Shown: positions 2,642 through 32,758 of the stretch, piece after piece
Layout of the letters: each line of letters starts with the position of its first letter
How positions within the stretch are numbered: the first letter of the stretch is position 1
From: an uncultured Acidobacteriota bacterium
GTDB taxonomy: Bacteria > Acidobacteriota > Terriglobia > Terriglobales > Acidobacteriaceae
Reading direction: 5' to 3'
DNA length: 64,000 bases
NCBI GenBank assembly: GCA_963696635.1
Contig: CAVOKX010000014.1
Coordinates: 256,234 to 320,233, forward strand
The notes under the pieces: model-generated
The model's database searches: none
What the model was told of the DNA's origin: nothing
Seen by the model: the letters and a program-made list of their open reading frames with translations, nothing else
Program-made: the position numbers and the translations under genes

Positions 2642-4621
2642 TCAGGGTTCCAGGGGTATTTGAGAGGGCCTCTGGCCGGAGGCCTGGTCCGCCAAGCTGG
2701 GATCCATCAGAGCCCGCTTGAGCCGGTCCTTTTCCCGTAGCAAGAAGCGCAGCCGGTCGGGTTCGTGCTTTTTCGCCGCCTGCAGTTCCCGCTGAACCTC
2801 TTCCATTTGGCGCCTGAACTGGATGCGCCGCAAGGCTCGCACCGCACCCTCCAGGCGCTCGGCTGTAAGATCCTCGTTTTCTTTCAGCAGAATTGCCGCC
2901 AGCAGATTACGGTCCGCATCCGGCAGCGGCAATTCCATAAGATCGGGTGATTCCGGCGCGGAGTTAAGCAGGGTTTCGATCAGTGACTCGGTAGCTAATC
3001 CAATGTGCAGGAGTTCGCTTTTAAGAACAAAATGGGCTTGGCGGGCAGGATCGAACTCTTCTTCAGCGCCATCGCGGGCTGAGAAGTGTTCCTGAGAAGT
3101 CTGCATTTCGCTGCCCGAAGTTAACGCCCGAATCAAGAGCTTCTCCGCATCGGTGACTTGAGCCTCGACCGCGGCTTTCAGGGTGGCGGTCGAGCGGTTG
3201 GCGGCCGCATGTTTGAGTTCTTGCCGGAGAACGGCAGAATCGATGCCGAGTTTTTGCGCGATCTCGCGGGTTAGTTCGTCGCGCACGATGCGGCTGGGCA
3301 CTCGCTGGATATGGGGCAGGAGATAATTCAGCGCCTTCACTTTTCCCTCAGCCCTGCGAATGGGAAACTGGCTCTGGGCGCGCTCGATCAGGTAATCAAA
3401 ATAGCGTTGCGAGTGCTTGAGCGCCTCGCCATAGGCATCCTTGCCTTTTCGCCGGATGAAGAGATCGGGGTCAAAGCCGGCTTCGAGCGTCAACACTTTG
3501 ATCTGGAAGTCATCTTCGACCAGAAGACCCAAGGTGCGTTCTGTGGCCTTGGCACCGGCGGTGTCGGGATCGAAATTCACGACTACGTTCTTGCTGAAGC
3601 GGCCGAGCAACCTGGCCTGAAGTTCAGTGAAGGCGGTGCCGGAACTGGCAATCACATTGTGAAAGCCGGCCGCGTAAACCGAAATACAATCCATTTGGCC
3701 CTCGACCAGGATGGCGTAATCCAGCTTGCGAATGGCTTCTTTGGCCTGATCGAGATTGAACAGGACACGAGACTTGGAGTAGATCGCGGTCTCCGGGGAG
3801 TTGAGATATTTCGGTCCGGCTTTCTCATCGGTAGCAAGCGTGCGCCCGGTGAAGGCGATCACTCGGCCGGTCTCGTTGGTAATGGGAAATACGATGCGGT
3901 TGCGGAATTTGGAGTAAATCGTCGTTGGCGGTTGGTCGTTGGTCGTTGGTTTTTCATCCTGGTCGGAATCGGACAAACTGATTGCGGGCTGTGCAGTGGG
4001 GGCAAGGGAGTTGCTTTGCTGAGAGCTTACAGCTGAGGGTTGAGAGTTTTCTTTCCACGAGAACAGGCCGCTTGCCCGCAAGACCTCCTCGTCGAACTCT
4101 CCCTTCAGACGATCTTTGAGCAAAAACCCTGAATCCGGTGCGTAGCCGATGCGAAAGGCTCGAATGACTTCCTGGCTCAATCCGCGCCCTGCAAGATAGT
4201 CGCGGGCACGGGCGCCCTCGGCGCGTCGCAGACATTCCTGGAAAAATGCAACCGCACGCTCGTGGATTTCGAGCAGCACGGTGCGCAGTTTGGCGTCGTG
4301 GGCTTCGGCAGGACTGCTGTAGCTGAGCTTAGGGAGCGCAATTCCCAGCTTTTGCGCCACTGCCCTCACGGCTTCCGGGAAGGTAATGTTCTCGATTTTC
4401 TGCACGAAGGCGAATACATCCCCTGACTCGCCGCAGCCGAAGCAGTGATAGAACTGCCGGGTTGCATGAACCGAAAACGACGGTGTCTTCTCGTTGTGGA
4501 ATGGGCAAAGCCCGGAATAGTTTTGGGCTCCCGCTTTCTTTAACTTGACGTAGTCGCCGACGACACGGACGATGTCGGCCTGCTGCTTGACGATTTCTTT
4601 GAAATCGGTGGCGTCGGTCAT
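2642..4621 (-). CDS. dnaG: DNA primase
   Basis: Zinc ribbon 'CPFHNEKTPSFSVH..YHCFGCGESGD'; TOPRIM 'ILVEGQMDCISV' and 'VVNFDPDTAG'. The ATG at 4621 (MTDATDFKEI...) is preferred over the TTG at 4657. Carries a low-complexity insert ('SQQSNSLAPTAQPAISLSDSDQDEKPTTNDQPPTT'). Confidence 0.9.
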   Translation of the reverse strand: MTDATDFKEIVKQQADIVRVVGDYVKLKKAGAQNYSGLCPFHNEKTPSFSVHATRQFYHCFGCGESGDVFAFVQKIENITFPEAVRAVAQKLGIALPKLSYSSPAEAHDAKLRTVLLEIHERAVAFFQECLRRAEGARARDYLAGRGLSQEVIRAFRIGYAPDSGFLLKDRLKGEFDEEVLRASGLFSWKENSQPSAVSSQQSNSLAPTAQPAISLSDSDQDEKPTTNDQPPTTIYSKFRNRIVFPITNETGRVIAFTGRTLATDEKAGPKYLNSPETAIYSKSRVLFNLDQAKEAIRKLDYAILVEGQMDCISVYAAGFHNVIASSGTAFTELQARLLGRFSKNVVVNFDPDTAGAKATERTLGLLVEDDFQIKVLTLEAGFDPDLFIRRKGKDAYGEALKHSQRYFDYLIERAQSQFPIRRAEGKVKALNYLLPHIQRVPSRIVRDELTREIAQKLGIDSAVLRQELKHAAANRSTATLKAAVEAQVTDAEKLLIRALTSGSEMQTSQEHFSARDGAEEEFDPARQAHFVLKSELLHIGLATESLIETLLNSAPESPDLMELPLPDADRNLLAAILLKENEDLTAERLEGAVRALRRIQFRRQMEEVQRELQAAKKHEPDRLRFLLREKDRLKRALMDPSLADQASGQRPSQIPLEP

Positions 4622-4783
4622 GAGTGGCGACAATTCTCCGCAGGAATTCTCAGGCAAAAAGGAACAGCAAGGAATATAGCAGTGGACTTGCGTGGCGGAA
4701 AACCTGTGAATTTTTATAGTTATCGGTTGAGGCGAGAGGAAAACCGGGATTTATTCTGCTCTTTGGTTCCTCTGAATGAGTTC

Positions 4784-5608
4784 TTACGCCTTCAGGTCCT
4801 GCCTTGCCTTCTCTGCAATCAACGGCATTTGTGCTGCGGTGGCGAGATGGACGGCATTCTCATTGAAAGCGTCCAATGCAAACTCAATGTCAGGGCGCTG
4901 GCGGTCCAGGTCATCGGCGACAACAGCAGTTAGCTGTGCATTCTGGGCTTTTTCAGAGAAGCACTTTGCAATGCGGGGGAAGCGGCTCGCAAGAACAATC
5001 GCCTGGTTAATGCTCGCCTTCAGCGGAACCGACTGAAAGAATCGGACCTCGGTCCCGACTTCATATCCGAAATCGAAGACGAGTGGGTCTCCCTTCTTCG
5101 CCGTATATTTGGATGCTGGGATTTGTGTTCCGATCAACCCCCAGATGCCGGCTCGGGTAAAGGCGTCTTTTATCTGAGCAAGGATCACGGCGCGCTCGCC
5201 CTTTGGGCGGTTTGCGGCTGGCAGTGCTTCCAGTTGGGGCTCTTCCAAATAGAGTGAGCACAAGGTTTCGAGCTCTCGAACTGGCTCCGCGGCCAGGCAC
5301 ACTTTTCGGGGGGAGATCTGGATCACATTCGCGAACGAGTCCTCCAACTTATGCAGCAGCGAGCCTACATCCTGCGGGTGCTGCAATCGCGTGCGAACGT
5401 CGGCTTCGAGAGCCTGCAAGACCTCTATATCAACCCCTCTATCGAGGCAAGTCGCTCGCCGCCAATCGCTGGTCATGCGCACGTCCGCGAAACCGAAACC
5501 GTCAGGCTGCGGCTCGAACAACAACAATCCGATATTTACAAACTCCCCTCTCACAACGTTGGGAACATATCGCAACAAGCAGAACTCGAGTTGCTTCAGA
5601 TCAGCCAT
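4784..5608 (-). CDS. DUF3037-like protein (function unknown)
   Basis: 274 aa. The N-terminus 'LEFCLLRYVPNVVRGEFVNIGLLLFEP' resembles, from memory, the DUF3037 signature (..lRyvPd.vrgEfvNiGvvl.). Lies 73 nt downstream of the kinase-like gene on the same strand. Confidence 0.55.
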   Translation of the reverse strand: MADLKQLEFCLLRYVPNVVRGEFVNIGLLLFEPQPDGFGFADVRMTSDWRRATCLDRGVDIEVLQALEADVRTRLQHPQDVGSLLHKLEDSFANVIQISPRKVCLAAEPVRELETLCSLYLEEPQLEALPAANRPKGERAVILAQIKDAFTRAGIWGLIGTQIPASKYTAKKGDPLVFDFGYEVGTEVRFFQSVPLKASINQAIVLASRFPRIAKCFSEKAQNAQLTAVVADDLDRQRPDIEFALDAFNENAVHLATAAQMPLIAEKARQDLKA

Positions 5609-5681
5609 CGATTTTCGAACCTGGACTCAGGGTCTTGATTTCCAAATACGTGGTCCATCGTGCATGGATCAAGGGGGCAAC

Positions 5682-6488
5682 TCATGCGTCTTCTTTCCAG
5701 TTGGGAAACGGCTGTCTCGGGCACGTCCGAAATGCCATAATTAGCTCGCGTATTCTTGCCCGCCGATCGAGCAGGCAGCGGACGAGTTCTTCGAGCGCGC
5801 CCCAGTCGCTGGCATACCATTCTGGCGGAATTCCGGCGGCACATTCCCAGACAACGTTTTCGTTCATGCCTTCTATCGTCGACAGCCAGGGCTGAAATGA
5901 TTCCCAGCCGCGCACGCTCAAATACACTTCATTCTGGGCATACACGCCACGCAGCGGATAATCGGGGAATGTCCACTCGCCGGCGTTGAAGCAATATCCC
6001 TGATCAATGAACGTGACTGTGTACTTTTTCTCTCGCGTTTTTCGCCAGAACGCTGCCTGTCGTCCGTTGGAATTTGCAGTCCACTTGTCGAGCGCCAGCA
6101 TCCCGGCAAATGTCCCAAGGTTTCGCACTCGTTCCAGCATGGCCGCGGGAAAGTAATCGAAGATCTGTCCTTGCAACGGGTCGACTACGTACCGGGAACC
6201 GAACTGTAGTCCTGGCTGGCACGGGATCACACTGCCGGCAAGCTGAATGTTAAGTTCGGCTGAGTTCTGCACCAGCCAGTCGCCCACTTCCACGACCTCT
6301 GTGGACGGAACCGGCAATCCGGCCGCCTCGGCGAGTCGCGTGGCCAGCAATTCATTCGCCAGCACGCGCAAATGTTGAGGATTGTTGACGAACTTCACCA
6401 CGTAGAAATTTCCATCGGAGCAGCGCATCATGTGCCCCTGTGCGCCGCCCCGCATTCTTCGCACGTGTTGCACAGCAAGCACCGCCAA
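5682..6488 (-). CDS. HipA-family-like (PI3/4-kinase fold) protein kinase homolog, possibly catalytically divergent
   Basis: 268 aa with a TTG start. 'RRMRGGAQGHMMRCSDGNFYVVKFVNNPQHLRVLANELLATRLAEAAGLPVP' looks like an ATP-binding lobe. It also has the catalytic-loop-like 'LDKWTANSNGRQ' and the DxG-like 'FIDQGYCF'. The assignment rests on motif resemblance only. Confidence 0.5.
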   Translation of the reverse strand: MAVLAVQHVRRMRGGAQGHMMRCSDGNFYVVKFVNNPQHLRVLANELLATRLAEAAGLPVPSTEVVEVGDWLVQNSAELNIQLAGSVIPCQPGLQFGSRYVVDPLQGQIFDYFPAAMLERVRNLGTFAGMLALDKWTANSNGRQAAFWRKTREKKYTVTFIDQGYCFNAGEWTFPDYPLRGVYAQNEVYLSVRGWESFQPWLSTIEGMNENVVWECAAGIPPEWYASDWGALEELVRCLLDRRARIRELIMAFRTCPRQPFPNWKEDA

Positions 6489-6493
6489 ATGGC

Positions 6494-6546
6494 AAGTCCT
6501 CGAAGGTACCCAAAAGGCTTCATCGTACCCCTACTTTCGAGGACTT
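6494..6546 (-). promoter_or_regulatory. Leader hairpin sequestering the kinase-gene Shine-Dalgarno
   Basis: AAGTCCTCGAA (6494-6504) and TTCGAGGACTT (6536-6546) form a perfect 11-bp inverted repeat. On the mRNA strand the 3' arm contains GAGGA, 8 nt upstream of the TTG start at 6488. Confidence 0.4.
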
Positions 6547-6679
6547 GATGTGACGTGTGGACATTGAAGCGGTGTGGATTTCTTGGGAGACCATCCTGAC
6601 GACTTCCCAGTGTCCGGAGTCAGAAGCTCATTGATCTGATTTGGCTGACTTCGACGAGGGAAGAGTCGCGTCCCCTCAG

Positions 6680-6732
6680 GGGCTGAAGCCCTTTGTCTAG
6701 AAGGGAGCTTGCGGCGCGTCTGAAGACGCGCC
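6680..6732. repeat. REP-like palindromic repeats (two hairpins with TGAA/TTCA loop)
   Basis: GGGC-TGAA-GCCC (6680-6691) and GGCGCGTC-TGAA-GACGCGCC (6713-6732). Same architecture as the copies at 23978-24029, 46002-46021 and 50494-50513. Confidence 0.55.
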
Positions 6733-6793
6733 CTTTCAAAGCTGTTCGGCCTATTTAACGAATTCGTGAGTCAGCCTCGAACGCCGCGGGGCA

Positions 6794-9271
6794 TTACACT
6801 CGTAACTCTATGACAGTCGCCCCCCCGCCGCCTTCATTTTGCGGAGGCTCGGTAACGGATTCTACATGGGGATGCTTCTGCAAATACTGACGGAGCGCCT
6901 TTCGCAGAATGCCCATACCGCTGCCATGAACGACCCGGACGCGCGGGAGCCCGGCCAGGAAAGCACGGTCTACGAATTTCTCAACCTCCCGGGTGGCGTC
7001 GTCGACCGTGCGACCGATTACGTTGATCTCGGACGGGGTGCTCTGGTTCTCGCTTTCGAGCGAAACCGAAATTCCTCGGGCGCGGGCAGCTTTCAGCGGA
7101 GAGTCCGAGGAGCGCAGCAGCACGTCGGCAATATCCTCGCGCGCGATTTTCATCTTCATGGCGCCGATCTCGACTTCGAAGTGGTTGTCGTCGATTCGAC
7201 GGGCTATTACGGCGGGACGGCCGACAGACTTCAGCTTGACCGTATCGCCCTCGGAGACGTGTTTCACGAGCTGTGGCTGGGCCTGAGGGTCACCCTGGTC
7301 GGCGCCGGTTGAGTGGGCTACAACGGCCGAATCAAACTGCTCGCGAAATTCGCGGCGTAACTTCGAGACGCGGCGTTCGGCGTCTTTAGACAGCTTTTGT
7401 GCTGCCACGCGATCCTCGATGGCGTTGACCATCTCGCGCGCGTGATATTCGAAGTCGCGTAGCAGGGTGTCGAGTTTCTTTTCCATTTCTTTGACTTTGG
7501 CTTGCTGTTCTTTTTTGCCCTCCGCGGCAAGACTAGCCTTTTCTCGTTGAATTTCTTCTTCGCGGGCGCGCAAGCCCAACCGCTCGGCTTCTACCTCACG
7601 CAATTCGGCGTGGAGGCGGTCCAGGAATTGGCCGACATCCCGCGCCTGCGACCCCAAGCGGGCACGGGCCGCGTCAATGATCGTCGGATTGAGCCCAAGT
7701 CGCTGGGCGATGTTGATGCCGGCAGAGGCGCCGGGAACGCCGATCTTTAGCTCATAGGTGGGCTGCAGCGTGGCTTCGTCGAACCCAACGGAAGCGTTTA
7801 TCACTCCCGCGGTGTTCGCGCCGAAAACCTTCAGCGAGGTGTGATGCGTGGAGATAATGGTGCTGCATCCGATGAGGCGGAAATGTTCAGCAATGGCGAC
7901 CGCCAGAGCCGCGCCTTCTTCGGGATCGGTGGCGGAGCCAAGTTCGTCGAGCAGCACCAATGACTGTGGCGTCGCAGTGCGTGAAATGAAATCAATGTTG
8001 GTGACGTGGGCGGAGAAGGTGGAAAGATTCTGTTCGATGGACTGGTAGTCGCCAATGTCGGCGAGCACCGCGTCAAATACAGGCAGTTCGGCGCGATCGG
8101 CGGGAACTGGAATCCCGGACTGCGCCATCAGCGCCAGCAAACCAACCGTTTTCAGGACGACCGTCTTGCCTCCCGTATTCGGGCCGGTGATGACGAGTTC
8201 ATGGCCATCGCCTTCGAGTTCAATGGTGGTAGGAACGACGCGGCCACCCTTGGCCTTGAGATTGCGTTCGAGCAGAGGATGGCGAGCTTTGCCGAGAGCG
8301 AGTCGAGCTTTGGTCGACATGGACGGCTGGGGGTGGCCGTCCTCACGTGAGTCTTGCACAGACAAAACCACCGGTACGCAGTTGTATTCCTCCGCAAATC
8401 GCGCCTTGGCAAACTGCAACTCCAGTTCGTTTAATACCGCCCCAGCGGCGAGAATTGGGGCTGCCTGCTCGCCGATGCGCCGAGTCATCTCGACCAGGAT
8501 ACGATGTATTTCCGCTTGCTCCTCATCCAGCAATCGCACCAACTCATTGTTCTGTTCGATGGTTTCGAGGGGTTCGACAAAGACGGTCTGGCCGCTGGAA
8601 CTGGCGCCGTGCACAACACCCTGCACTCGTCGTTTCTGTTCGACCTTGACCGGGATTACGAAGCGCTCGCCGCGGATCGTGACCAACTCGTCCTGCACCG
8701 CGCCACCTTCGGATAAGCGCCGCAGATAGCCCCGCAGAGAATCCTGGATCGAGCGTCGCTGCTTGTCTATGTCGCGGCGAATGCGGGCAAGTTCCGGCGA
8801 GGCCTTATCGTCGAGTGTGCCATCGGGCAGGATCTTGTTGCGAAACGCGCGCAGGAATTCGGTGAAGTCCGCGATCACCGACGAGAGCTCCACTACGGCT
8901 TTCCACTCGAACTTCATGGCGGCAGGGGGACTCAGGGCGATTTCGCGCCACTCGGCGGCACGATCCACCACAAGCACCACGTCCCGAATATCCGTGGTTT
9001 CGAGTGCTGTACCCGCAATTCGAGATTTCTCCACCAGTGGAGTGATGTCGAGAAGGCCCGAAAAATCGAAACATCCGCCTACGCGCCGGAACTCGCGGAT
9101 CTCGCTGGTGAGCAGTTGCTGATTCTCGATCCAGGCGCGGTCGGTGGAAGGCGCGAGGTGAGCAATCAGATCCCGCCCCAGGGGCGAAGAGGTGTATGCA
9201 CTCAGCAAGTCGCGGAGAGAATCGAATTCCAGCACTCGCGCGCCGGTGTGGGAAAGTGGCTGAGGAGGCAT
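6794..9271 (-). CDS. mutS2: Endonuclease MutS2 (MutS-family ATPase with C-terminal Smr domain)
   Basis: 825 aa. Walker A '[17 protein letters not shown]', '[13 protein letters not shown]', and a C-terminal Smr '[16 protein letters not shown]'. Confidence 0.9.
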
Positions 9272-22343: not shown

Positions 22344-23378
22344 CTAGTAAACCGCGGCCATGGCGGCGGGAAAGTAGCTGCGATAGCACACCACAGTCTG
22401 CCCGTCATTCTCATCTAAATGCGGCATCGCTTGAAAGGCGGCATGCAAAGCGAGGGAAGCAACTGGCTTTGTGATCTCCATCCGTTCCTCTCTCTGAAAT
22501 GCTTTGACCGCTCTAGGCTGAGCTGTGGGAGTCAAAGGCATGGACAGTTCGATCGCGGTAGTCGGGCTGAGCCTGGGATAGTGAAAGCACACTCGGCCTC
22601 CCGACTCTTCCTCCGCCACGAATAGTGCCGACCATTCCTGAAAAAATGATCCTCCTTCGCGATCCACGAACGCGACTACTTTTTGCACGGAAGCTCCCGT
22701 GGACGGTGCTCCGCCCAGTAAGGGCTGAGCCAGCAGTAATGAAGTCACCGTTTCTTGGGCTACGCGGCCAACGTTAAACGTCACACGACGAACGTAATTG
22801 GCATCCCGGTTCACATCTGCGGGGTCGCTAACGTACGCAGCCGAGATTCCCGTTCCCACATATCCGGTCTGCTGCTGGTAGTCGGTGTCTACGGCAACAA
22901 CGTCGCCCACCGCAAACGCATTCACCGCTCCCACTCCCAGAACGATCTGGCTGGCCGTCGATCCTGGAAGTACGGCTACCGCCGGCAGGGGTGTTCCGCC
23001 GGAGGGTTGTGCGTTGGCATTTGGATCGGACGCCAGTACGTTCATGTGCTCGGATCCGCACGCCAGAGCCATTTGGAGCTTGCCCCACTCGCGAAAATCG
23101 AATTCAATCCGCGCATCAATTGGACCACGAAACTGTGCAGTAGGTGCTGCCGCTGTGCCCGCCCGCAATGGTTCGGTAAGGGTCGTGCACCAACGTTGGA
23201 AGTTGTCCACCCAGCCAAGATCGAGCCATGGCGCGGGCGGTGCATCCAGCAGGAATGCACCGTACTTGCCCGGATCGAAGATCGATGGTGTTCCTGCAGT
23301 GCGGTTCATCGGCGCAAAGTATGCGCGAATTTGCCGCGTGACCGGAACCATTGGCGCGCGAAGCGGCGAGGTACTCAT
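22344..23378 (-). CDS. Phage structural protein (possible tail tube / major tail protein)
   Basis: 344 aa. ATGA overlap with the upstream gene. Called on position alone, between the connector-like genes and the hub; no diagnostic motif was recognised. Confidence 0.3.
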   Translation of the reverse strand: MSTSPLRAPMVPVTRQIRAYFAPMNRTAGTPSIFDPGKYGAFLLDAPPAPWLDLGWVDNFQRWCTTLTEPLRAGTAAAPTAQFRGPIDARIEFDFREWGKLQMALACGSEHMNVLASDPNANAQPSGGTPLPAVAVLPGSTASQIVLGVGAVNAFAVGDVVAVDTDYQQQTGYVGTGISAAYVSDPADVNRDANYVRRVTFNVGRVAQETVTSLLLAQPLLGGAPSTGASVQKVVAFVDREGGSFFQEWSALFVAEEESGGRVCFHYPRLSPTTAIELSMPLTPTAQPRAVKAFQREERMEITKPVASLALHAAFQAMPHLDENDGQTVVCYRSYFPAAMAAVY

Positions 23379-23908
23379 AGAAAGTTCACCTCGGGAAAGA
23401 AGAAAACCTTTAAGCTGGCACTGCGCTCCAGTCGCACTCCTTCGTTTCCTCTGGGAAGACCCTCGTTCTTCGCCGCTTCACTGCCAGAAACCTTGCCCAG
23501 GTTCGGTGTCGTCCATAGAATACTTGTCCCCAAATCAGCGCTGGGCGTCTGTGTGTAATCTCGCTTTGAAGTTCGGGGCGGTTCACAAATATTCAGTAGT
23601 TCCATATCGAGAGCCGCCAGCGCCCGGCCTCGATCCACGCCGCTCTGCACCGTTCCGAAGGTGTGGTAAGAAATTATGCATTCCATTTCCATCAGACCCC
23701 TATCGCCCACTTGGTCTTGCACCATCTGTGCCGTGCCCCATTCGATGTAAAACGCGTCGGACACGGGCTGGGCAGAAATCACTAATTCGTTTTCCGCCAC
23801 GATGATCGCGGGCCGAGTCGTCCCGTCGAGAGTAACCGTTTGAAGCGGGTTCAACGAGACCAACCGTTGCAGCAGTGCCATATAAAAACTATCTTTGGTG
23901 AATTGCAT
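23375..23908 (-). CDS. Phage head-tail joining / tail-terminator-like protein
   Basis: 177 aa. Called on position and size only; translationally coupled to 22344-23378. Confidence 0.3.
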   Translation of the reverse strand: MQFTKDSFYMALLQRLVSLNPLQTVTLDGTTRPAIIVAENELVISAQPVSDAFYIEWGTAQMVQDQVGDRGLMEMECIISYHTFGTVQSGVDRGRALAALDMELLNICEPPRTSKRDYTQTPSADLGTSILWTTPNLGKVSGSEAAKNEGLPRGNEGVRLERSASLKVFFFPEVNFL

Positions 23909-23977
23909 AAAGGCAGCGTAAGCTCCTGAGTCCTAGCTTTTGGCTCGACCTGGTTTTGTGAATGCTAAGCCAGGGGA

Positions 23978-24029
23978 GGCACGGCTTCAGCCGTGCCGGT
24001 CGAGCCATGAAAAATGTAGGCTTCAGCCT
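23978..24029. repeat. REP-like hairpins inside the phage-like structural operon
   Basis: GGCACGGC-TTCA-GCCGTGCC (23978-23997) and AGGC-TTCA-GCCT (24018-24029), in the 184-bp gap between two structural genes. Confidence 0.6.
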
Positions 24030-24092
24030 CTGGGGTTAAGATTTTCCCTAGTCCAAGCCAAGAGCTAGGAGCCAGAAGCTAGGACCATCCTT

Positions 24093-24503
24093 TCATTCCA
24101 CCGCCAGTACTCGGTAGAGATAAGCAGTTCCATCGAAGTACTCCGTGGTCACGTTCTCGATATGAAAAAGATCGTTGTCGTACAACAGTCCGAGCGCGCC
24201 ATCGAACAGGACTTCAGCCGATGCCACGTTCCGTGAACTTAACTCCGCCGCCACCGCGGCGCCCGACAACAGGAACTCCAAACGTCTTCGAGGGCCCGTC
24301 GCCGGAGTAATCAAAGTCCGCACTACCACGGGAGAAAAGATCACTTCTTCCACCCCTGGATCGGCTAAGCCAAGTTGAGCGCTGGGATCATTAGGCATCG
24401 TGACCAACGGGAATAGCATGCTGACCTCGGCGCCACCTAGCGCCTGCAGCATTGCATCTGCCGCCCGCACCACCGCCGATGAACTCATCCCGGTTTCAGT
24501 CAT
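24093..24503 (-). CDS. Phage head-completion/adaptor-like protein
   Basis: 136 aa. Packed 3 nt behind the upstream gene. Called on position only. Confidence 0.3.
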   Translation of the reverse strand: MTETGMSSSAVVRAADAMLQALGGAEVSMLFPLVTMPNDPSAQLGLADPGVEEVIFSPVVVRTLITPATGPRRRLEFLLSGAAVAAELSSRNVASAEVLFDGALGLLYDNDLFHIENVTTEYFDGTAYLYRVLAVE

Positions 24504-24506
24504 GCT

Positions 24507-25133
24507 TCAGCCCACCTTCTGTGCTACGTACGGCGCCAGCATGGCCTGTACACCCTGATCTATCAGTGAGTCGGAAAAATAATCCATACTCATGACATCG
24601 ACCTTCCCGCTGCGCACATTCAATGCGGGGGTCGCTTGCGCGTTGCGGACAATTTGCGCGCATGCAAACTTTACCGGGTCGGAAATAACTGCCAGCCCCG
24701 CCGTGTATACGATGTCCGCCTCGCTGAACCACAAACCCACGATGTTCAGTGGCAGTGTCAACTCACCTGTATTGGCGAAAAAATCGATTGCGGCGGCGTT
24801 GATGCCCGTCCAGATTCCAGGCAATCCGAACATGAGAGCAGCATCCAGTCGAAGATCATCGAATGGCCAATCGCCTCGGCGCGGGATCGTGTAGCGTCCC
24901 TGTGCTGAGACAATGGGCGTGACCGCCGGTGGCACAACCGCCAGTGGAATGTAGGTCAGACGCACCGTATTGCGATCTGCAGCGATTCGCAATCGTTCCT
25001 CATACTGCGCCACCGCCAGGCTGGCTCGTCGACAATGTGCATCGATGAGCGACGATGCTGCAGCTACGAATGCGGCGGGCGTTGTTGCGTCCAACCCGTA
25101 AAGCTCGTATTCCGAAGGAGCGAGATAAATCAT
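24507..25133 (-). CDS. Phage head-tail connector-like protein
   Basis: 208 aa. The N-terminus 'MIYLAPSEYELYGLDATTPAAFVAAASSLIDAHC' resembles gp6-type connector N-termini. Lies directly after the capsid gene. Confidence 0.35.
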   Translation of the reverse strand: MIYLAPSEYELYGLDATTPAAFVAAASSLIDAHCRRASLAVAQYEERLRIAADRNTVRLTYIPLAVVPPAVTPIVSAQGRYTIPRRGDWPFDDLRLDAALMFGLPGIWTGINAAAIDFFANTGELTLPLNIVGLWFSEADIVYTAGLAVISDPVKFACAQIVRNAQATPALNVRSGKVDVMSMDYFSDSLIDQGVQAMLAPYVAQKVG

Positions 25134-25221
25134 AAGAGTTCCAAGTTTCCCGATTGCCAGTCGTCAGTGGACTCGCCGCCTTATCGAACTCGCAACGAAT
25201 CACTGACGACCGGCAACTGCC

Positions 25222-26193
25222 TTACCGGTTTACCTTCACTTCGTAGTGCGCATAGGCTGCGCCTTTGACCACCACCGCACCGAACTTCACCACTACCATT
25301 TGCGAAGCCAATGCGCCGAGCAGTCCCAACTGGAAGACCCGCGGATTCGGGTCCGTTAACCAGTGGTACTCGATCAGGTCTTCGGTCACGATGTAAGCGG
25401 GAAGCACCGCCGTGCCCGTGCCGGGTGTTCCCGTGTAGGGCACCGCCCACTCCGGAATCAGTGGCAACTCTCCCGCTTGCGTTGAAAGAGTCTTGACCGT
25501 TAGCCCGCCCGTAATCTGGGCGGTAGAAAGCACGACATTGAACTCGGCTTTCATTTCACGATCGATCAGGTCGAGCAGCACCGGATTGGCATAGATCGCT
25601 GTGGGACGAACTTCGTAGGAGGAACTCGCCACCATTCCGGCGATCACTCCCTTGATTCCGTCCACGATGCTCTCGGTAGTCGTGATGGTGGTGGTGTTGC
25701 CCCCCGCCTCGATCTGGCCGATCGCTCCCATGTATTGGAACGTGGTCGGCGTTGTCAGCGAAGTGTCGTTGCCATTCCAAAGCGCAACGTCGTGAGTTCG
25801 CAGCAGCCCTTCCACCGAGTCGGTCAGGTCTTTCGCTTGCAAGTAAGCAAACTGGCTTTGCTGAGCGCCGACTTCCAGGTCAAACAGGTTGTAGTTGATC
25901 TGCGAGACCAGAGCCTTCAGCGGCACCGTACGCTCAATGCGGGTTGGTGCACCGACGGTGGCCACGATATTTCGCGGGTCGACGAATGCCTGCACCGCCG
26001 TCGGGGAATTGATTAGAGTCTCTTCGAAGTATCGTGAAGGATGCCCCGTTGCAGGTACCTGCCGGACTCGTTGCCCGAACACTCCCCGCCGGCGCACGAT
26101 GTCGAAAATCTCCGTTTGATAACGGTTGATCTCAATCGCGCCTGGCCCCAGAAAATCCGCCGCCGCGTTCAGATCAATAAATTGTGTGTGCAT
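25222..26193 (-). CDS. Phage major capsid protein (HK97-fold expected)
   Basis: About 323 aa from ATG 26193, preceded by AGGAG with a 5-nt spacer. Size and position after the protease and scaffold-like genes fit a capsid protein. The ORF-track TTG at 26271 is less likely. Confidence 0.55.
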   Translation of the reverse strand: MHTQFIDLNAAADFLGPGAIEINRYQTEIFDIVRRRGVFGQRVRQVPATGHPSRYFEETLINSPTAVQAFVDPRNIVATVGAPTRIERTVPLKALVSQINYNLFDLEVGAQQSQFAYLQAKDLTDSVEGLLRTHDVALWNGNDTSLTTPTTFQYMGAIGQIEAGGNTTTITTTESIVDGIKGVIAGMVASSSYEVRPTAIYANPVLLDLIDREMKAEFNVVLSTAQITGGLTVKTLSTQAGELPLIPEWAVPYTGTPGTGTAVLPAYIVTEDLIEYHWLTDPNPRVFQLGLLGALASQMVVVKFGAVVVKGAAYAHYEVKVNR

Positions 26194-26334
26194 GTGTTCT
26201 CCTGAGAATGAATTTTGTTGCGTGCATTGAAATTGTGGCGACGGTTTGCTCGTCACGGAAATTCCCGCCAAATGGAAAAGGCACGACCGTTGTCGCGCCC
26301 TTTGTGAACTGAGAAATACGAGATCGGAACTCAG

Positions 26335-26769
26335 CTATTCGATCATCCCCGCCCGCGCCATTTCTGCCTTCACTGCGATACGCTGCTCCACGCTGAGCGA
26401 TTGCAGAGTTTTGTCCAGCATCGCAGGGTCCAGTTTGTCCCCGACCTCCACGCTGCCCTTGCTCAGCAATGCCGTGACCAGCGGAGACAGAGTTTTCCGC
26501 GTCAAACGTGCGGCCTGTCCCTTAAGGTCGTTATTTGCCTTTTCCAGTTCAGCGATGCGTTCCGTCAGCTTTCGTGGCCAGTTAGTTCCGTCCGCGGTTT
26601 CAGAAGTCTCTGACACCCGCTCTTCAACCGCCGCCGCAATACGGTCTACCTTGGCATTCAGGGCTGCCTGTTGTGCATCGATCTTCTCGAGAACCCGATC
26701 CAGAGTCTCGGCCGCACTTGCCAGCCGTTCCGCCGTGGCGAGTAGTTGTTGCGCAGTTTCTGTGTCCAT
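26335..26769 (-). CDS. Scaffold-like coiled-coil protein
   Basis: 144 aa, Ala/Glu/Leu-rich helical sequence ('AERLASAAETLDRVLEKIDAQQAALNAKVDRIAAAVEE'), lying between the protease and capsid genes. Confidence 0.4.
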   Translation of the reverse strand: MDTETAQQLLATAERLASAAETLDRVLEKIDAQQAALNAKVDRIAAAVEERVSETSETADGTNWPRKLTERIAELEKANNDLKGQAARLTRKTLSPLVTALLSKGSVEVGDKLDPAMLDKTLQSLSVEQRIAVKAEMARAGMIE

Positions 26770-26848
26770 CTTTTCTCCTTTTTGGTATTGTTCCGCTTAC
26801 CCGACGCTGCTATTCTCGCCAGCGCGGTTTTACAGTTTTGCTTCTGGC

Positions 26849-27394
26849 TTATTCCAATTCGATCCAAGTGTCCCGATATGCCGCTTTGTCTCGTCGTAAG
26901 ATTGCGGCTCCGGTGAAAGTAACTTGTGTCAGTGTCCAGATCTTCGCCTTAACATCCGCCACGCGCGCATCTGCAATTTCGTAGGACATTGCTAGGCACG
27001 CGCGATGATGCGAACTCGCAGCGTCGACGCCGCTTTGACAATCACGCCCCCGCCCAATCTGCTTCACAATTTCCGGAAAATCCTTGGCGAAAAGGTATCC
27101 GCCCAGCTCAAGTCTCTTTCCCACGATCTCCGCGCGAGTAATAACTCCAACTTTGCGGCGCGTATCGTGACGGTCGAGTGACAAAGAGTAATCCAATGCC
27201 ATGCCCAACAACGACGCCAGCGCGGTCTCAGCGGCGGCCCGTGTCAGTACGACTCTATGACCCCGGGCTCCCGCCGGTGCCTTGTCGGAAGCCACATCGA
27301 CGAGCGTCAACACGCCACGGAATGGTTCCCGGTTCGGATGTCCGACGACTGCCGGCATCGCTATTGCCATCGATTCCAGTTCAATACTCATCAT
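26849..27394 (-). CDS. Prohead maturation protease-like protein
   Basis: 181 aa. 'LDRHDTRRKVGVITRAEIVGKRLELGGYL' resembles the 'HD....iG' His region of HK97-type (S78) prohead proteases. Lies after the portal gene. Confidence 0.45.
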   Translation of the reverse strand: MMSIELESMAIAMPAVVGHPNREPFRGVLTLVDVASDKAPAGARGHRVVLTRAAAETALASLLGMALDYSLSLDRHDTRRKVGVITRAEIVGKRLELGGYLFAKDFPEIVKQIGRGRDCQSGVDAASSHHRACLAMSYEIADARVADVKAKIWTLTQVTFTGAAILRRDKAAYRDTWIELE

Positions 27395-27480
27395 TTGCAG
27401 TCATCCTCAGCGAGTTAATTCGCTCGTGAAAGGCCAGTGAAGGGAACTTGTAAAACCTGATGCCTGATGCCTGAGACGCT

Positions 27481-28695
27481 TTACAGCGGCGGCAACCCTC
27501 GCATCCGCCGAACCTCCCCAACCGTGAGCACGCCGTTCTGCAGCAGCAGCGCCTGGATTTGTGCTTCTTCCATCACATCTCCACCCGAATCCACATCCGT
27601 GAAAACAAATTCCAGGTCACTCCACCCCAGTTTCTTGCAGATCCCATCCCGCGTCAGATATTCGGCGAGCAATCGCGCAGTGGGCACAATTGCTTGCAGA
27701 AACGCTTCATCCGCCATTTCCGTCGCGGTCGAGCGGTTCAGGTCGCGCTCCACCCCCAGGCACTGCGGAGGAAGATCAAACGCGTCCGCGATAATCCGCA
27801 GCAGGAATTCCTGCCACTGCAGCCGCAAGTCCGCATCGGTGCCGCCGCCGAAGCGCAACACTTCCGGCTTGTTCTCCGCCGACAGGATCGGCACCCGCCC
27901 GGTGCCCTCGATCTCGTCTTGCCACCATCGAATCAATCGCTCGTGATGCTCCGGAGTCAAACCTTGCAGCCAAAGCGCGTACTCCACCACAGAGTTCGAA
28001 GCCAGTTTGGTCGCATACCGATGCGCACCCAGAAACGCGTTCACCGCCTCAAACGCAACTTCCAGCCGCCCCAGTCCAAACGGTGTGTGCGTTCGCGGGT
28101 TGAGCCGGATGTAAATCAACTCATCATCATTGAGAAGAATATTTCCCTCCGGCCCCGACTTCCCCGTGACCTGCACATAGCGAACCGATCCCGGCAATCC
28201 GTCCCAGTCCGTCTTCATGCGGATCGTCGCTCCATCCACCGGCCACATCACCAGAGGACGCTGCGCATCACCCGTGCCTTCCACTTCAATCGCTCCGAAG
28301 CCGCCCACAATCACATCCTCAAGCACTTGCTCCGACAGAGAGCGAAAGGAATCGTCCGGATTCGGAGCATCAAAATTGTCAGTCAGGACTTGAATCCGCA
28401 AATCGCTGTCCGGAGCCGCCACAGGCCCACGTCCTGGACGCGCTTGGATTCGCCAGCGCATTCCGGCGATCCGGTCCTTGATTGTGTTGATCGCTTTGCG
28501 TGCTACCGGTGTCTCAGAAAATCGCCGTAGGTTGATGGGCGTAGGTTTCGGAAAAGCATCCGCCCTCGGCCCGTAGACGTTAAGAATGGACGGCAGTGCC
28601 ACCGTTCGCCGCTTGCCCTCCGCTTTCCCCGCGGCGGCCGAAGACACTCCCGCAATCCGGCGCATAGCGCCGCGCAACTTCTCTGTAATGTTCAT
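27481..28695 (-). CDS. Phage portal protein
   Basis: 404 aa. Lies downstream of the terminase gene. The conserved core 'NPRTHTPFGLGRLEVAFEAVNAFLGAHRYATKLASNSVV...RVPILSAENKPEVLRFGG' is typical of the Phage_portal family. Confidence 0.75.
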   Translation of the reverse strand: MNITEKLRGAMRRIAGVSSAAAGKAEGKRRTVALPSILNVYGPRADAFPKPTPINLRRFSETPVARKAINTIKDRIAGMRWRIQARPGRGPVAAPDSDLRIQVLTDNFDAPNPDDSFRSLSEQVLEDVIVGGFGAIEVEGTGDAQRPLVMWPVDGATIRMKTDWDGLPGSVRYVQVTGKSGPEGNILLNDDELIYIRLNPRTHTPFGLGRLEVAFEAVNAFLGAHRYATKLASNSVVEYALWLQGLTPEHHERLIRWWQDEIEGTGRVPILSAENKPEVLRFGGGTDADLRLQWQEFLLRIIADAFDLPPQCLGVERDLNRSTATEMADEAFLQAIVPTARLLAEYLTRDGICKKLGWSDLEFVFTDVDSGGDVMEEAQIQALLLQNGVLTVGEVRRMRGLPPL

Positions 28696-28774
28696 GATTT
28701 TTTCTGTGGTATAGCGCGGGCGCCCACCCGCGAAGTTTCGATGAACTAGAAGATCTCTTGTTCCTCGTAGCCCG

Positions 28775-30451
28775 TCACGCTCTCAAATCTCTCGTGGCAT
28801 CCTCGGCTGGCGCCTGTGCTTGCAACGGCAAACTGGCCAGCGTAACCGCTCGCGGTCGCCAAACCTGTCCAGCCAACTTCTGTCGCGCTGCCAGCGCAAT
28901 CGCCATCGCCATGACGCAATCATCATGCGAGCCCCCCGCCGCCGAGGAGTTACCATCGGCATGACGGATAAAAGTCCGGCACTCATTCAGCAACCGTGAA
29001 CTGTGGAAGATCGTCTGCTCCACTGCCAGCACTGCGGCTAAGTTTTCAATCATCGCTGGTCTGCTCACCGCCGAGGTCAACCATCCATCATGCCCGCCAT
29101 CGCGAAAGACGTTCGTACATCCCGCCATACGCAAGTGCGCTAGCACCGCATGGCCATGATTATTCTGCTCCACCACCAGCAACCCCTGGTTATAGGAATT
29201 CCCCAGCTCAATCAGCCTGGCCGCCAGTTCGCGAGGCGGAAAATGCCCGTGTAATTCAGCGCATTGCAGCCCCGTACTTCGCTCGATTACCACGGCACAG
29301 GAATAGTCGCCGTCCGAGCCGCCCCCCGCCGGATCTACTCCAATGATGTACTGTTTCCCCGTCTGCTCCGGCAGCCAGATCAGCAAACGCTGATTGTCCC
29401 GCGCCTCCACCGGTTCTCCGCAGGTTTGCAGAGCCCGCTCGATCGCCTCCAGATCAAACACGCATTCCCCCGAAGCTCGGAAGCACGAGACCGGATCCTC
29501 AGCATATTCTTGCGCCGCCAATCCTCTCAGTTGCGCCCGCTTCGTGCGCCGCCATGCGATCTGCTCCTCGGTCAAGCCGGCCTGCTGTATCAGGTGCTCT
29601 TCTTCGACTGTGAGTGTTTCGAATGTCACCATTCTTCTCTGCACCCGGTACTCTTCGCCATACCACCACGGAAAGAAGTGACGCGAGTACCTGGTTTCGT
29701 CGGCTCGCTGCCATTCCTCATAGAAGATCCCACCCGCTCCATTAGGGGTCGACTCCAGCACAATCTCCCCGTTTTCCGGCACTGCGTTCCGTAGGGATGC
29801 CAGCGTTTCCTCTACATCCCGGGGCCAGCGGGCGACCTCCGAGCAATGAAGATTGTGAATGGTCATCCCGCGGCCCGCATTCGCATCCGCCGCCGTCGCC
29901 ACGCGATACTCGCTGTCCAGTCGCGGAAAAACGATCTGGCGAATGTTGGCGCGTGAGGTCACGAGCGCGCCCTCCTGCATCCCTTTGGGCAGGTTCTCCC
30001 AGAAGCGATGCACGATTTTGAAAATCTCCTCCGCTGATTCCTGGTCGTGAGCCACCTGCACCGACATAGTGCCCGGCTGAGTGATGGTCTGAATGAAAAA
30101 TCGCGCGGCCACATAAGTCGTGATCCCCAATTGCCGCGCCTTCAGCACTATGCTTCGCTTGGTATGCTTCCGCGAAAACTCCAACTGCGCCCGGTTCGGC
30201 CTCAGCGAAATCAACCCGCGAGTCTTGCTCCGCACCTTCAGTAGTGCTTCAATGATCAGATCTCTCACCGGAAAATCTGAGACCACATTCCCCCCGGCTG
30301 TCAACGTCTTCGTTACCCCGTGCCCTCCCAGCGGACGCAGATCCAAAGATCTGCCCAACCTCCTGAGCAGCAAAAGATCATTCATCCCTGCCAGCCCTTC
30401 ATTCCAGTTCGTTTGTGCACAGCACCTCCAGTCGCCACTGAAGGTCCTCAC
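28775..30451 (-). CDS. Phage terminase large subunit
   Basis: ATPase 'VLKARQLGITTYVAARFF'; nuclease 'IIGVDPAGGGSDGDYSCAVVIE' and 'GGSHDDCVMAMAIAL'. The GTG at 30451 overlaps the upstream stop (GTGA); an alternative ATG lies at 30385. Confidence 0.8.
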   Translation of the reverse strand: MRTFSGDWRCCAQTNWNEGLAGMNDLLLLRRLGRSLDLRPLGGHGVTKTLTAGGNVVSDFPVRDLIIEALLKVRSKTRGLISLRPNRAQLEFSRKHTKRSIVLKARQLGITTYVAARFFIQTITQPGTMSVQVAHDQESAEEIFKIVHRFWENLPKGMQEGALVTSRANIRQIVFPRLDSEYRVATAADANAGRGMTIHNLHCSEVARWPRDVEETLASLRNAVPENGEIVLESTPNGAGGIFYEEWQRADETRYSRHFFPWWYGEEYRVQRRMVTFETLTVEEEHLIQQAGLTEEQIAWRRTKRAQLRGLAAQEYAEDPVSCFRASGECVFDLEAIERALQTCGEPVEARDNQRLLIWLPEQTGKQYIIGVDPAGGGSDGDYSCAVVIERSTGLQCAELHGHFPPRELAARLIELGNSYNQGLLVVEQNNHGHAVLAHLRMAGCTNVFRDGGHDGWLTSAVSRPAMIENLAAVLAVEQTIFHSSRLLNECRTFIRHADGNSSAAGGSHDDCVMAMAIALAARQKLAGQVWRPRAVTLASLPLQAQAPAEDATRDLRA

Positions 30452-32691
30452 GGACCACCTTCCGCATGTCCCAAATTCTCAGGTACAAAAACCAGCGACC
30501 CAATCTCCCAACCAGTTCCAAACCGAGTCTGATCGATTCCCATCAGATCGTACTTGTATTCGTCCGCCAGCGTCGCGCCCTGATCCACGACCGGCGATGC
30601 CTGAGTCGGTCTCGGATCTACGGGCGGCCCTGTGGTCACATCCGCGTAATAGGTTGTCCCCGAGTTTTGCTGCGTACTGAGCAAATAATTTACTAGCTGG
30701 GTAGTGCTCATCAACGTCGCTCCCGAGGCCTTCAGCGTATCCAGCATCACGCCTACCTGGTGCGGCGCCAGTTCATTTACATGCCAGAAGATCCCGAAAG
30801 GAACGCCCCAGACCGCCGATTTGAACACCAGCGCTCGCAGCTTGCTCGCCAGTTGGCTATCCGTTAGGTTCTGGAAATTAGGAACCACCCCCTGGCTCAA
30901 AATGTTCTGCACATCGATTCCGCTAGCCGCAACCGTCGCCGCATTCGGAGCCGGGTCCATCGAACCCGAACCGCGCGAACCCGAAAATCCCGCTGCGACC
31001 GTCATTGCCTCCGTGGAGCCGTCTTCGTAGCTCCCCGGGTACACGTACACCCGGTTCGCCGGCAACCCGGTTAAGTTTGCATCCATCCAAGCTTTCGACC
31101 ATTCAATCTCATCCGTCATCAGGCGCGTCTTGTCCATCAACAGCACATAAGGCGAGTTCTTGATGTCCTGTGCGGGCACATCTGCCAAGTCCTCGCTCTT
31201 TACCGCCGATTTCATATTCGGGTCCTCTGTGACCCAAAAAACCCCGCGCTGGTTTAGCGTGAAGATCAAGCCGCCCAACGTATCCAAGCCACCAGGCACC
31301 ATGTCCGTGCCTGACGAACTAAAATTCCAACTCACTTGCGCATTCGGATCTCCCGGCGCTGTAATCGTGAACTGCCCATTGGAAATCGAAAGCGTTACGC
31401 TCGTGGCCGCCGCCCCCGTGTACTGAAGCGTGAACGCGTTCGGGAAAACAAAGTACTGATGTGATACCGAGTGGCAATTAACATCCCATCCCGCGTTGAT
31501 CCAGGACTGGAAAGTCGGAATCAACTGCTGTGACAGGTCATACCCGGTAACCACGGCAATGCTCAGCGGTATACCTTTTGACTGGATCATCGGCAGCAGC
31601 GATTCAATGTACTGATGCGACCCATCGACCAATCCAGGGTCGTCGTAAGTGACAGTAATCCGCGCCGGATACTGCATGAACCCCCGCACATTTGGCGGCG
31701 TATCCGCCGCCAGGTTGTGGCCGCCGTCAATGGGACCGGGCGTGCCAGTCACGTCAGTGGAAATCCCAGTCGCAAGATTGTTTGCATAGAAGTGACAGTA
31801 CGAATAAGTCACCGCTCCTGTGTTGTCCATCAGTCCGTATGTACGATTTGCGTAAGCGCGACAGTTCTTCAATTCAATGGCAGTCGCTGGTAGATCAAAC
31901 CGATACCCGACATAGTTCCGGTGCGCATCGGTGTTGTAAAGATGTATGTCTCCAGGTGTGCCGCTAGCATGCACGTAAAACCCAATGGGCACGGTAGCAT
32001 TCGGCACCTGACTGTCCGCCATCATGTTGGCCAACCACACATGGTCACTTGCATGCTGTACTTGAACCCCGTAGCCGTCGTACCAGTCGAGCTTGATATG
32101 CTGAATTTCAACATAGCTCACATTATCAATGTTGATCAGTGCCTGCCCGCTCAGAAGGATCGGTGACACCGAGCCGTAATGCGTCACCGGATTGCCCCCC
32201 GCCGACCACACATACAGATTCTGCGCGACCGGGTCGTAGTACCAATCCCGATCATGAGCCAGTAGACCCTGCGTGCTCTGCGAATTTCCCCACATCGTGC
32301 CGAACTGCACAAACTTGAGCTGCGAGATCGGCTGGGTCGCAGTTAGCGAAATCTGCCAAACATTGCCGCCAACGTTCATCCATTGTGAAGCGGTCGTCGC
32401 ATAGTGGCCCGTGAACTCAGGTGGACGCCCGTTGCCGTAGGCATCGAACTTGATCACATTCCCCGCCGCTCCGCTCGATGGCGGGGTGAGCCACTCATTC
32501 CACACCGCGTCCCGCTTGAACAAGATCACATCCCCGGGCTGAAACGTGGAAATCCCGACCTTCAGCAGCGTGCGCCACGGAGTCTGCGGAGACAGCCCGC
32601 TGTTCCCGTTGCTCCCCGTCGGATCTACGTAGTACGTAGTCGCTGAAGCCCCCGCCGTCAGTACGACCGCAAGTATGATCTGCTTCCACAT
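30448..32691 (-). CDS. Secreted right-handed beta-helix protein fused to a NodB/CE4 polysaccharide deacetylase domain (tailspike/depolymerase-like)
   Basis: ATG at 32691 preceded by GAGAGGA. Signal peptide 'MWKQIILAVVLTAGASA'. 'TTYYVDPTGSNGNSGLSPQTPWRTL' is a beta-helix N-cap. NodB motifs 'VTYDDPG' and 'HSVSH'. Confidence 0.6.
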   Translation of the reverse strand: MWKQIILAVVLTAGASATTYYVDPTGSNGNSGLSPQTPWRTLLKVGISTFQPGDVILFKRDAVWNEWLTPPSSGAAGNVIKFDAYGNGRPPEFTGHYATTASQWMNVGGNVWQISLTATQPISQLKFVQFGTMWGNSQSTQGLLAHDRDWYYDPVAQNLYVWSAGGNPVTHYGSVSPILLSGQALINIDNVSYVEIQHIKLDWYDGYGVQVQHASDHVWLANMMADSQVPNATVPIGFYVHASGTPGDIHLYNTDAHRNYVGYRFDLPATAIELKNCRAYANRTYGLMDNTGAVTYSYCHFYANNLATGISTDVTGTPGPIDGGHNLAADTPPNVRGFMQYPARITVTYDDPGLVDGSHQYIESLLPMIQSKGIPLSIAVVTGYDLSQQLIPTFQSWINAGWDVNCHSVSHQYFVFPNAFTLQYTGAAATSVTLSISNGQFTITAPGDPNAQVSWNFSSSGTDMVPGGLDTLGGLIFTLNQRGVFWVTEDPNMKSAVKSEDLADVPAQDIKNSPYVLLMDKTRLMTDEIEWSKAWMDANLTGLPANRVYVYPGSYEDGSTEAMTVAAGFSGSRGSGSMDPAPNAATVAASGIDVQNILSQGVVPNFQNLTDSQLASKLRALVFKSAVWGVPFGIFWHVNELAPHQVGVMLDTLKASGATLMSTTQLVNYLLSTQQNSGTTYYADVTTGPPVDPRPTQASPVVDQGATLADEYKYDLMGIDQTRFGTGWEIGSLVFVPENLGHAEGGP

Positions 32692-32758
32692 TCCTAAGTC
32701 CTCTCTAATGTTGTTTTGAAAAAAGAAGCGAGTGGACACTTCAGCTAGAGAACCTTCG

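Follow-up and report, generated by a model that had tools for sequence, protein, structure and literature searches.

A 64,000-nucleotide stretch of DNA from an uncultured Acidobacteriota bacterium of the order Terriglobales (contig CAVOKX010000014.1; hereafter the window) carries two adjacent minus-strand genes between mutS2 and dnaG, one for a HipA-like kinase-fold protein (5682-6488) and one for a partner protein with an N-terminal DUF3037 domain (4784-5608). We put at about one in two the probability that this pair belongs to the HipA_2-kinase/DUF3037 family (HipAD) as a catalytically degenerate, vertically inherited member whose role is that of a sensor or switch in conflict involving phages. 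What is new here is an order-wide, vertically inherited HipAD homologue that lacks the catalytic Asp and has its ancestral home in a terminase-portal cluster. The pair had been singled out in an original prediction, made from the sequence alone, as an "uncharacterised" module; that description no longer applies, since the two genes correspond to PADLOC PDC-M66A/B and to the named HipAD system.

Homology to HipAD and the catalytic loop

PADLOC lists such a pair as the defense candidate PDC-M66, and across phyla DUF3037 shows a strong association with genes of the HipA-like type (PMC12548924). In the Retron-Sda1 operon, deletion of HipA abolished defense against phage Bas51 and deletion of DUF3037 was toxic, the retron parts being dispensable (PMC12548924). 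An E. coli pair, DS-6 (DS-6A = WP_000389051.1, DS-6B = WP_000210934.1), was validated as an anti-phage defense and renamed HipAD; AlphaFold3 predicts a complex of its two proteins (interface predicted template modelling score [ipTM] of 0.76-0.79), and defense was lost with D139A, the DS-6A catalytic mutant in supplementary file 6 (PMC13092281). HipAD is also credited to Brenes and Laub (2025), as cited in PMC13092281. The C-terminal domain of DS-6B has been reported as DUF1829. In Escherichia phage PhiR5_1 (PV340545.1), genes annotated as a HipA toxin and a HipD antitoxin adjoin cI, and their sequences are identical to DS-6A and DS-6B (paper supplement). The reading of the window pair as a module of the toxin or defense type, offered in the original prediction, agrees with these homologous pairs.

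Judged by the sequence and profile alignments, homology of both window proteins to HipAD is secure. The kinase-fold protein matched DS-6A in BLASTP with 26% identity over 180 residues (E = 8e-12) and in hhalign with a probability of 97% (E = 1.8e-11, residues 5-175); for the partner and DS-6B the corresponding values were 21% identity over 176 residues (E = 1e-7) and a probability of 95.5% (E = 1.5e-8, residues 9-125). The two systems share gene order and orientation, protein sizes (249 and 275 aa for DS-6A and DS-6B, 268 and 274 aa in the window), a HipA_2 kinase fold combined with an N-terminal DUF3037 domain, the absence of HipB, and an association with phages or prophages. They differ in that identity is only 26% and 21%, the kinase C-lobe and the C-terminal domain of the partner were not alignable, and the E. 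coli copy lies beside cI in a lambdoid phage whereas the window pair is chromosomal, vertical and ancestrally placed between terminase and portal genes. Both PADLOC profiles matched the corresponding window proteins, as scored by E value and not by PADLOC's own calling thresholds, and coverage was partial (PDC-M66A, E = 8e-6, residues 5-122 of 268; PDC-M66B, E = 2.7e-8, residues 5-60 of 274); the same two-domain logic is found in PDC-M66 and the Retron-Sda1 module, but a retron reverse transcriptase and noncoding RNA were absent here, and an Rfam scan of 4300-7100 gave no match.

The HipA-like kinase layout first proposed for the upstream protein was borne out: all three of the peptide motifs quoted for it were present, and Pfam HipA_2 (PF20613) matched above its cut-off (E = 6.3e-10, 39.2 bits, cut-off 27), the match being confined to residues 10-101. 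The hidden Markov model searches suggested with the original prediction were positive in Pfam for both families, and NCBIfam held no family for either the kinase-fold protein or the partner. The AlphaFold2 (AF2) model of the kinase-fold protein (predicted local distance difference test [pLDDT] 71, predicted template modelling score [pTM] 0.74) had a protein-kinase-like fold, for which Foldseek gave CtkA, Fam20C, Fam20A, HipA and PI4KII-alpha as the nearest solved structures. Residues of the nucleotide site were invariant or nearly so, namely the GGAQGH P-loop, Lys32, Glu46, Asp134, Trp136, Asn139, Arg143, Gln144 and Asp162 (of FIDQG). In PHROGs the kinase-fold protein fell in phrog_3162 (E = 5e-14) and the partner in phrog_5137, both families of unknown function. 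Searches of PDB sequences with profiles of the kinase-fold protein and the partner, and with DS-6A, gave chance matches only; tblastn of the kinase-fold protein against 50,697 phage records gave no match, and of the partner against the same records two weak matches only, one of which led to the annotated HipD of PhiR5_1.

A canonical HipBA-type persistence toxin-antitoxin module would also have a HipA-related kinase fold, and with E. coli HipA the window protein shares the kinase superfamily, an xGAQ-type P-loop and an alignable catalytic-loop position. That explanation is hardly credible for this pair. The match to Pfam HipA_C (PF07804; E = 3.6e-4, residues 24-70 only) reached 20.7 bits, under the cut-off of 30.5; the protein has 268 aa against 440 aa for HipA, lacks the HipA N-terminal domains and has Asn in place of Asp309; and its partner is encoded downstream and is a DUF3037 protein. 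As had been noted originally, there is no HipB-like helix-turn-helix (HTH) partner: the 305-nt upstream spacer (6489-6793) contained no open reading frame (ORF) of more than 58 aa and no HTH or HipB-like candidate.

A further difference from HipAD lies in the catalytic loop. The codon AAC at 6066-6068 (minus strand) encodes Asn141, and three alignment methods placed LDKWTANSN141GRQ of the window on FDKWILNAD139R of DS-6A, the loop being 7 residues shorter in the window kinase. Asp309 of E. coli K-12 HipA fell in the same column of a profile alignment, which was weak (hhalign probability 33%, E = 4.7e-4). The original prediction had remarked on Asn at the position of the catalytic-loop Asp and had suspected a pseudokinase; the substituted residue turns out to be exactly the essential Asp139 of DS-6A. 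As a rule, a kinase loses its activity when its catalytic base is substituted. HipAD in the mechanistic sense is an active kinase toxin with an antitoxin, and on the one testable feature that defines it, a catalytic Asp required for defense, the window kinase, with Asn141, does not qualify as a member.

A HMMER scan of 1.84 billion representative proteins yielded 2885 clusters at E <= 1e-3. Of the best 150 representatives (37-87% identity), 124 had Asp at position 141, 19 had Asn, 2 Gly, 2 Arg and 1 Glu, and among the 120 closest homologues (at least 70% identity) it was Asn in 118 and Asp in 2 (P0079 and P0116). The motif DKWT[GAC]N[AST]NGRQ was present in 79 of 80 species-level genome loci. 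A rough neighbor-joining tree read by parsimony placed Asp at the root and gave at least 4 separate Asp-to-Asn clades, together with cases of Gly and Arg. The catalytic Asp has been lost repeatedly, several times independently, in this HipA_2 subfamily.

Selection, spread and the phage-like cluster

Ratios of nonsynonymous to synonymous substitution (dN/dS) were determined against eleven relatives with the mutS2-dnaG context; because dS was near saturation, the ratios are approximate. They were 0.047-0.066 for the kinase gene, 0.061-0.076 for mutS2, 0.069-0.100 for dnaG, at most 0.059 for rpoD and 0.10-0.23 for the DUF3037 partner gene, whose dN was about 4 times that of the kinase gene. At these eleven loci the kinase-fold proteins were 72-91% and the partners 30-68% identical to those of the window, and dozens of residues were invariant along the full length of both proteins. 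Neither gene is decaying, and purifying selection on the kinase-fold protein, at a level typical of core genes, matches that on mutS2. The substitution of key residues in both proteins (Asn141 in the kinase; Arg189 for Lys in the partner) would fit a decaying, functionless remnant of a defense or toxin-antitoxin module, which we nevertheless regard as very improbable: both ORFs are intact in about 80 species, and the dN/dS of both genes and the full-length invariant residues contradict it.

In a genome scan, relatives turned up in at least 572 species genomes, all of them Terriglobales or Terriglobia, and the counts of genomic context given here cover the best 80 species-level genome loci of this set. 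The DUF3037 gene lay directly downstream of the kinase gene in 79 of the 80, in keeping with the recurrent pairing mentioned in the original prediction, which extends to other phyla (PMC12548924). The pair is vertically inherited across Terriglobales. An insertion both recent and flanked by repetitive extragenic palindromic (REP) elements is at odds with this inheritance and with a kinase dN/dS like that of mutS2; the description of its composition as unremarkable was correct (GC content of 0.54-0.57 for the pair against 0.55-0.60 in the flanks). At the exceptional locus, L016 (L016:6001-8226), an Asn-type kinase ORF is intact and a portal gene comes 207 nt later, with no DUF3037 gene between them. 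The kinase is apparently tolerated there without an adjacent partner, and since the ORF has remained intact, it is probably not toxic alone. This differs from Retron-Sda1, in which the kinase is needed for defense and loss of DUF3037 is toxic. Two Asp-type kinase relatives, L083 and L085, were observed in other surroundings: one has a 120-aa C-terminal extension and belongs to an element with integrase, relaxase and resolvase genes, and the other is followed by PRTRC_E and Prok_Ub genes, with no DUF3037 gene.

An alternative is that the pair is an ordinary active HipAD toxin-antitoxin or abortive-infection system, in which the kinase, Asn141 notwithstanding, continues to phosphorylate a host target, the DUF3037 protein keeps it neutralized and phage infection sets it free. 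Each component is a homologue of its DS-6 counterpart (DS-6A or DS-6B), the remaining catalytic-site residues are all invariant, Asp and Asn interchange among relatives, a TTG start with a sequestered Shine-Dalgarno sequence is the tight control typical of toxin genes, and the phage-borne ancestry resembles that of HipAD beside cI in PhiR5_1. We consider this explanation somewhat unlikely, because the aligned Asp is essential in DS-6A, where D139A loses defense, and because general enzymology speaks for an inactive enzyme; in addition, one species has the kinase but no adjacent partner, and slow, core-like evolution of the kinase with order-wide vertical inheritance at fixed loci is atypical for defense toxin-antitoxin modules. 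The catalytically degenerate sensor or switch is preferred: with Asn at the essential residue yet housekeeping-tight conservation, the protein is probably no longer a simple kinase toxin, and the intact ATP site, the housekeeping-level constraint, the fixed Asn and L016 together argue for loss of the phosphotransfer toxin role with nucleotide binding kept.

The mutS2-pair-dnaG order of the window was shared by only 13 of the 80 loci, which form one clade in the kinase tree. In the other 67 the pair lay between terminase and portal genes: a large terminase subunit (TerL; phrog_2, E = 8e-35) was encoded upstream of the pair in all 67, and in 65 of the 80 loci a portal protein of phage type (PF04860, E = 1.5e-43) was detected downstream. 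Beyond these come a head-tail adaptor gene and conserved genes for proteins of 181, 143 and 323 aa. The TerL-pair-portal order was likewise found in 15 of 16 IMG/VR contigs, and because five of these have Asp in the catalytic loop, the phage-cluster context is older than the Asp-to-Asn change.

The window itself retains this usual genomic home of the pair, which the original prediction had not noticed, as a conserved phage-like cluster of about 17 kb (22344-39325, minus strand) that lies 17-20 kb from the pair, comprising genes for a 2188-aa protein, a beta-helix/polysaccharide-deacetylase-like protein, TerL, the portal protein, 181-aa, 144-aa and 323/349-aa proteins, the head-tail adaptor, and 136-aa, 177-aa and 344-aa proteins. 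At its terminase-portal junction (28696-28789, minus strand) the pair is absent and TerL (28790-30328) and portal (27484-28695) abut; the spacer there matches the DUF3037-portal spacer of L025 and L035, and the cluster and its counterpart in L102 (a 5.2-Mb contig) are collinear gene for gene. The pair was thus probably relocated by about 20 kb as a unit in the lineage of the window. The kinase tree alone, in which the two contexts are sister clades, leaves the direction of this move unsettled, and a move from the cluster to the mutS2-dnaG site is favored because Asp-type relatives are already in the TerL/portal context. Read most economically, these findings mean that the pair arrived as the cargo of a phage-like element, which has since come to be inherited vertically.

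Across more than 80 Terriglobales loci (including L019, L086-L100 and L102), the phage-like cluster was collinear with 50-87% protein identity, and most of its proteins matched nothing in Pfam or PHROGs. The window yielded no tRNA gene, and the scanned ORFs of the cluster and its flanks yielded no integrase domain. The cluster looks like a domesticated, possibly gene-transfer-agent-like element and not an ordinary prophage. Just upstream of its giant gene lies a gene for a dual-specificity protein phosphatase (Pfam DSPc, E = 5.4e-11; 39406-39996, minus strand).

This context raises the alternative that the pair is an accessory or regulator of the phage-like, possibly gene-transfer-agent-like, cluster (for example in packaging, head assembly or induction) and has no part in immunity. 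Such a role would suit the position of the pair in 67 of 80 genomes and 15 of 16 IMG/VR contigs, where TerL and portal genes of the same strand flank it at a short distance, for Asp and Asn types alike; it would also suit the co-divergence of the cluster with the kinase, the core-like constraint on the kinase, and the failure to find a tRNA gene or an integrase domain. We judge it distinctly unlikely, however. No morphogenesis role is known for a kinase or for DUF3037, particle production by the cluster is only a supposition, and a whole clade of at least 14 genomes has the pair about 20 kb away, intact and constrained; moreover, the characterized homologues defend without structural genes (PMC12548924, PMC13092281). 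A further account, which we hold to be unlikely, is that a phage-borne HipAD kinase-toxin module has been domesticated order-wide into an ATP-binding pseudokinase with a fast-evolving DUF3037/endonuclease-like partner, acting as a sensor or switch for the conserved, integrase-less, gene-transfer-agent-like cluster or for superinfection immunity linked to it.

The DUF3037 partner and the leader of the pair

The DUF3037-type N-terminus assigned to the downstream protein in the original prediction was confirmed by Pfam (PF11236; E = 6e-19, 68.8 bits, cut-off 22.6) over residues 10-120 (5249-5581, minus strand), and an LRYVP...NIG motif is held in common with HipD. In the AF2 model of the partner this domain had a pLDDT below 50 and was not modelled. 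The extra domain of about 150 aa that had also been noticed corresponds to residues 136-274 (4787-5203, minus strand), modelled with a pLDDT of about 70-93 and predicted to have a restriction-endonuclease-like (PD-(D/E)xK-type) alpha-beta fold. Foldseek searches of the PDB with this C-terminal domain consistently gave nucleases of that fold as top matches, among them Cdn1, BstEII, VC1899, Can2, BsoBI, Mus81-Eme1 and AF1548 (E = 3.5e-3 to 0.1; template modelling [TM] scores of 0.25-0.32), and the structure matches in BFVD were viral endonuclease-like proteins; Pfam gave no match to the isolated C-terminal domain of either the window partner or DS-6B/HipD.

The fold, together with a D...ExR motif, made the partner a candidate nuclease effector. 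The window domain has Asp174, Asp179 and Glu187-Val-Arg189, the Arg standing in for the Lys of most homologues. Only 57 of 79 loci had Glu at position 187, while 65 had Lys and 12 had Arg at position 189, and IMG/VR relatives had V, T, D, A, S or I at position 187 and H, R or E at 189; Asp174 and Asp179 alone were invariant, leaving no conserved D...(D/E)xK triad. Because the ExK positions vary, an active nuclease was rejected family-wide, and the domain is treated as a probable nucleic-acid-binding or ligand-binding module and not as a proven nuclease.

On the minus strand the order of genes is mutS2 (6794-9271), the 268-aa kinase ORF, the 274-aa partner ORF, dnaG (2642-4657) and rpoD (739-2430). 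The two ORFs were found as originally described, on the same strand and 73 nt apart between the mutS2 and dnaG genes, the partner ORF beginning with ATG and the kinase ORF with TTG. The end of the module, however, had been placed at 6546, which is 58 nt past the kinase start codon (6488), and the extra bases belong to a leader hairpin. A start upstream of 6488 is impossible because of an in-frame stop at 6531-6533, and the TTG start is supported by residues 1-11, which are conserved in distant homologues and form a confident strand in the AF2 model.

The leader hairpin is an inverted repeat (6493-6547, minus strand) with 16-nt arms and a 23-nt loop; a Shine-Dalgarno sequence, GAGGA, lies in its 3' arm, which stops 4 nt short of the TTG start, and the stem has a minimum free energy of -32.8 kcal/mol (z = -2.2). 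Both arms are conserved in the mutS2-context relatives, and the 95 nt upstream of the kinase start are 76-85% identical in L001-L010. The repeat is likely a translation-limiting stem or an operator, and because the relatives with this context showed no compensatory changes, an RNA stem and a protein operator are not distinguishable. Further upstream, a GC-rich 9-bp hairpin (6713-6732, minus strand) lies 62 nt beyond the stop codon of mutS2 and probably serves as its terminator, which would place a promoter of the pair's own in 6548-6712. The hairpins had been taken for REP elements on both sides of the pair. They occur upstream only and both are single-copy in the 64-kb window, the only other match to 6713-6732 (46002-46021) having 3 mismatches, and REP elements were therefore rejected.

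Relatives show 80-83% identity in the spacer between the partner gene and dnaG (4658-4783). It contained no terminator-like site, and no hairpin was found past the end of the partner gene; co-transcription of the pair with dnaG-rpoD is thus possible, or else a dnaG promoter in the spacer. Some close relatives have extra DNA in the spacers: in L001 about 1.4 kb separates mutS2 from the kinase gene, and in L006, L007 and L010 the DUF3037 gene and dnaG are 0.8-1.6 kb apart. The locus seems to accept insertions. L008 and L009 are two contigs of one metagenome-assembled genome (MFD03399.bin.1.45), each with a full hemB-mutS2-pair-dnaG-rpoD arrangement, which suggests a strain mixture or an assembly duplicate.

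Proposed function and significance

In the sensor or switch that we favor, the kinase-fold protein would still bind ATP, as a pseudokinase or a very weak kinase, and would not be a growth-arresting phosphotransfer toxin. It would form a complex with the partner via the DUF3037 domain, by analogy with the complex predicted for DS-6A/B, and the restriction-endonuclease-like C-terminal domain of the partner, as modelled, may bind nucleic acid. Expression of the first gene would be damped by the weak TTG start and by the leader stem sequestering the ribosome-binding site. The complex would then be a sensor or switch, dependent on ATP, in the conflict between phage and host, either in superinfection defense or in control of the phage-like element from which the pair originates. 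Among pseudokinases that retain ATP binding, Fam20A, which stands beside Fam20C, offers a parallel, having a kinase fold and an intact nucleotide pocket without the catalytic residue, and both proteins are structural neighbors of the window kinase; there is no sequence relationship, so that this is an analogy only, and ATP binding by the window protein is a prediction.

Several observations weigh against this explanation. The alignment that brings Asp309 of E. coli HipA onto position 141 is weak, and two close homologues of the window kinase (P0079 and P0116) have Asp again. Since the site also toggles repeatedly in the subfamily, Asp and Asn may both permit the same activity. The DS-6A mutant that lost defense carried Ala, which is not equivalent to Asn; weak activity persists in a few kinases that have Asn at the catalytic-loop position, which makes residual phosphotransfer possible. 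The AF2 model is poor around kinase residues 144-168, the Pfam and PADLOC matches cover N-terminal parts only of both proteins, and ATP binding and nucleic-acid binding are both inferred only. Finally, L016 is a metagenome-assembled genome, in which the partner is possibly encoded elsewhere.

Validation of HipAD as an anti-phage system is very recent, and the system is presumed to work as a kinase toxin restrained by DUF3037. A large clade of abundant soil Acidobacteriota (at least 572 species-level genomes) has replaced the essential residue yet keeps housekeeping-level constraint, and because the Asn clade is under such constraint, a second mode of HipAD action that is independent of the catalytic Asp is argued for. 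The Asp-type relatives in the same genomic context provide a natural D/N series for dissecting this second mode, and the terminase-portal link gives a handle on a possible domesticated phage-like element in a genetics-poor phylum.

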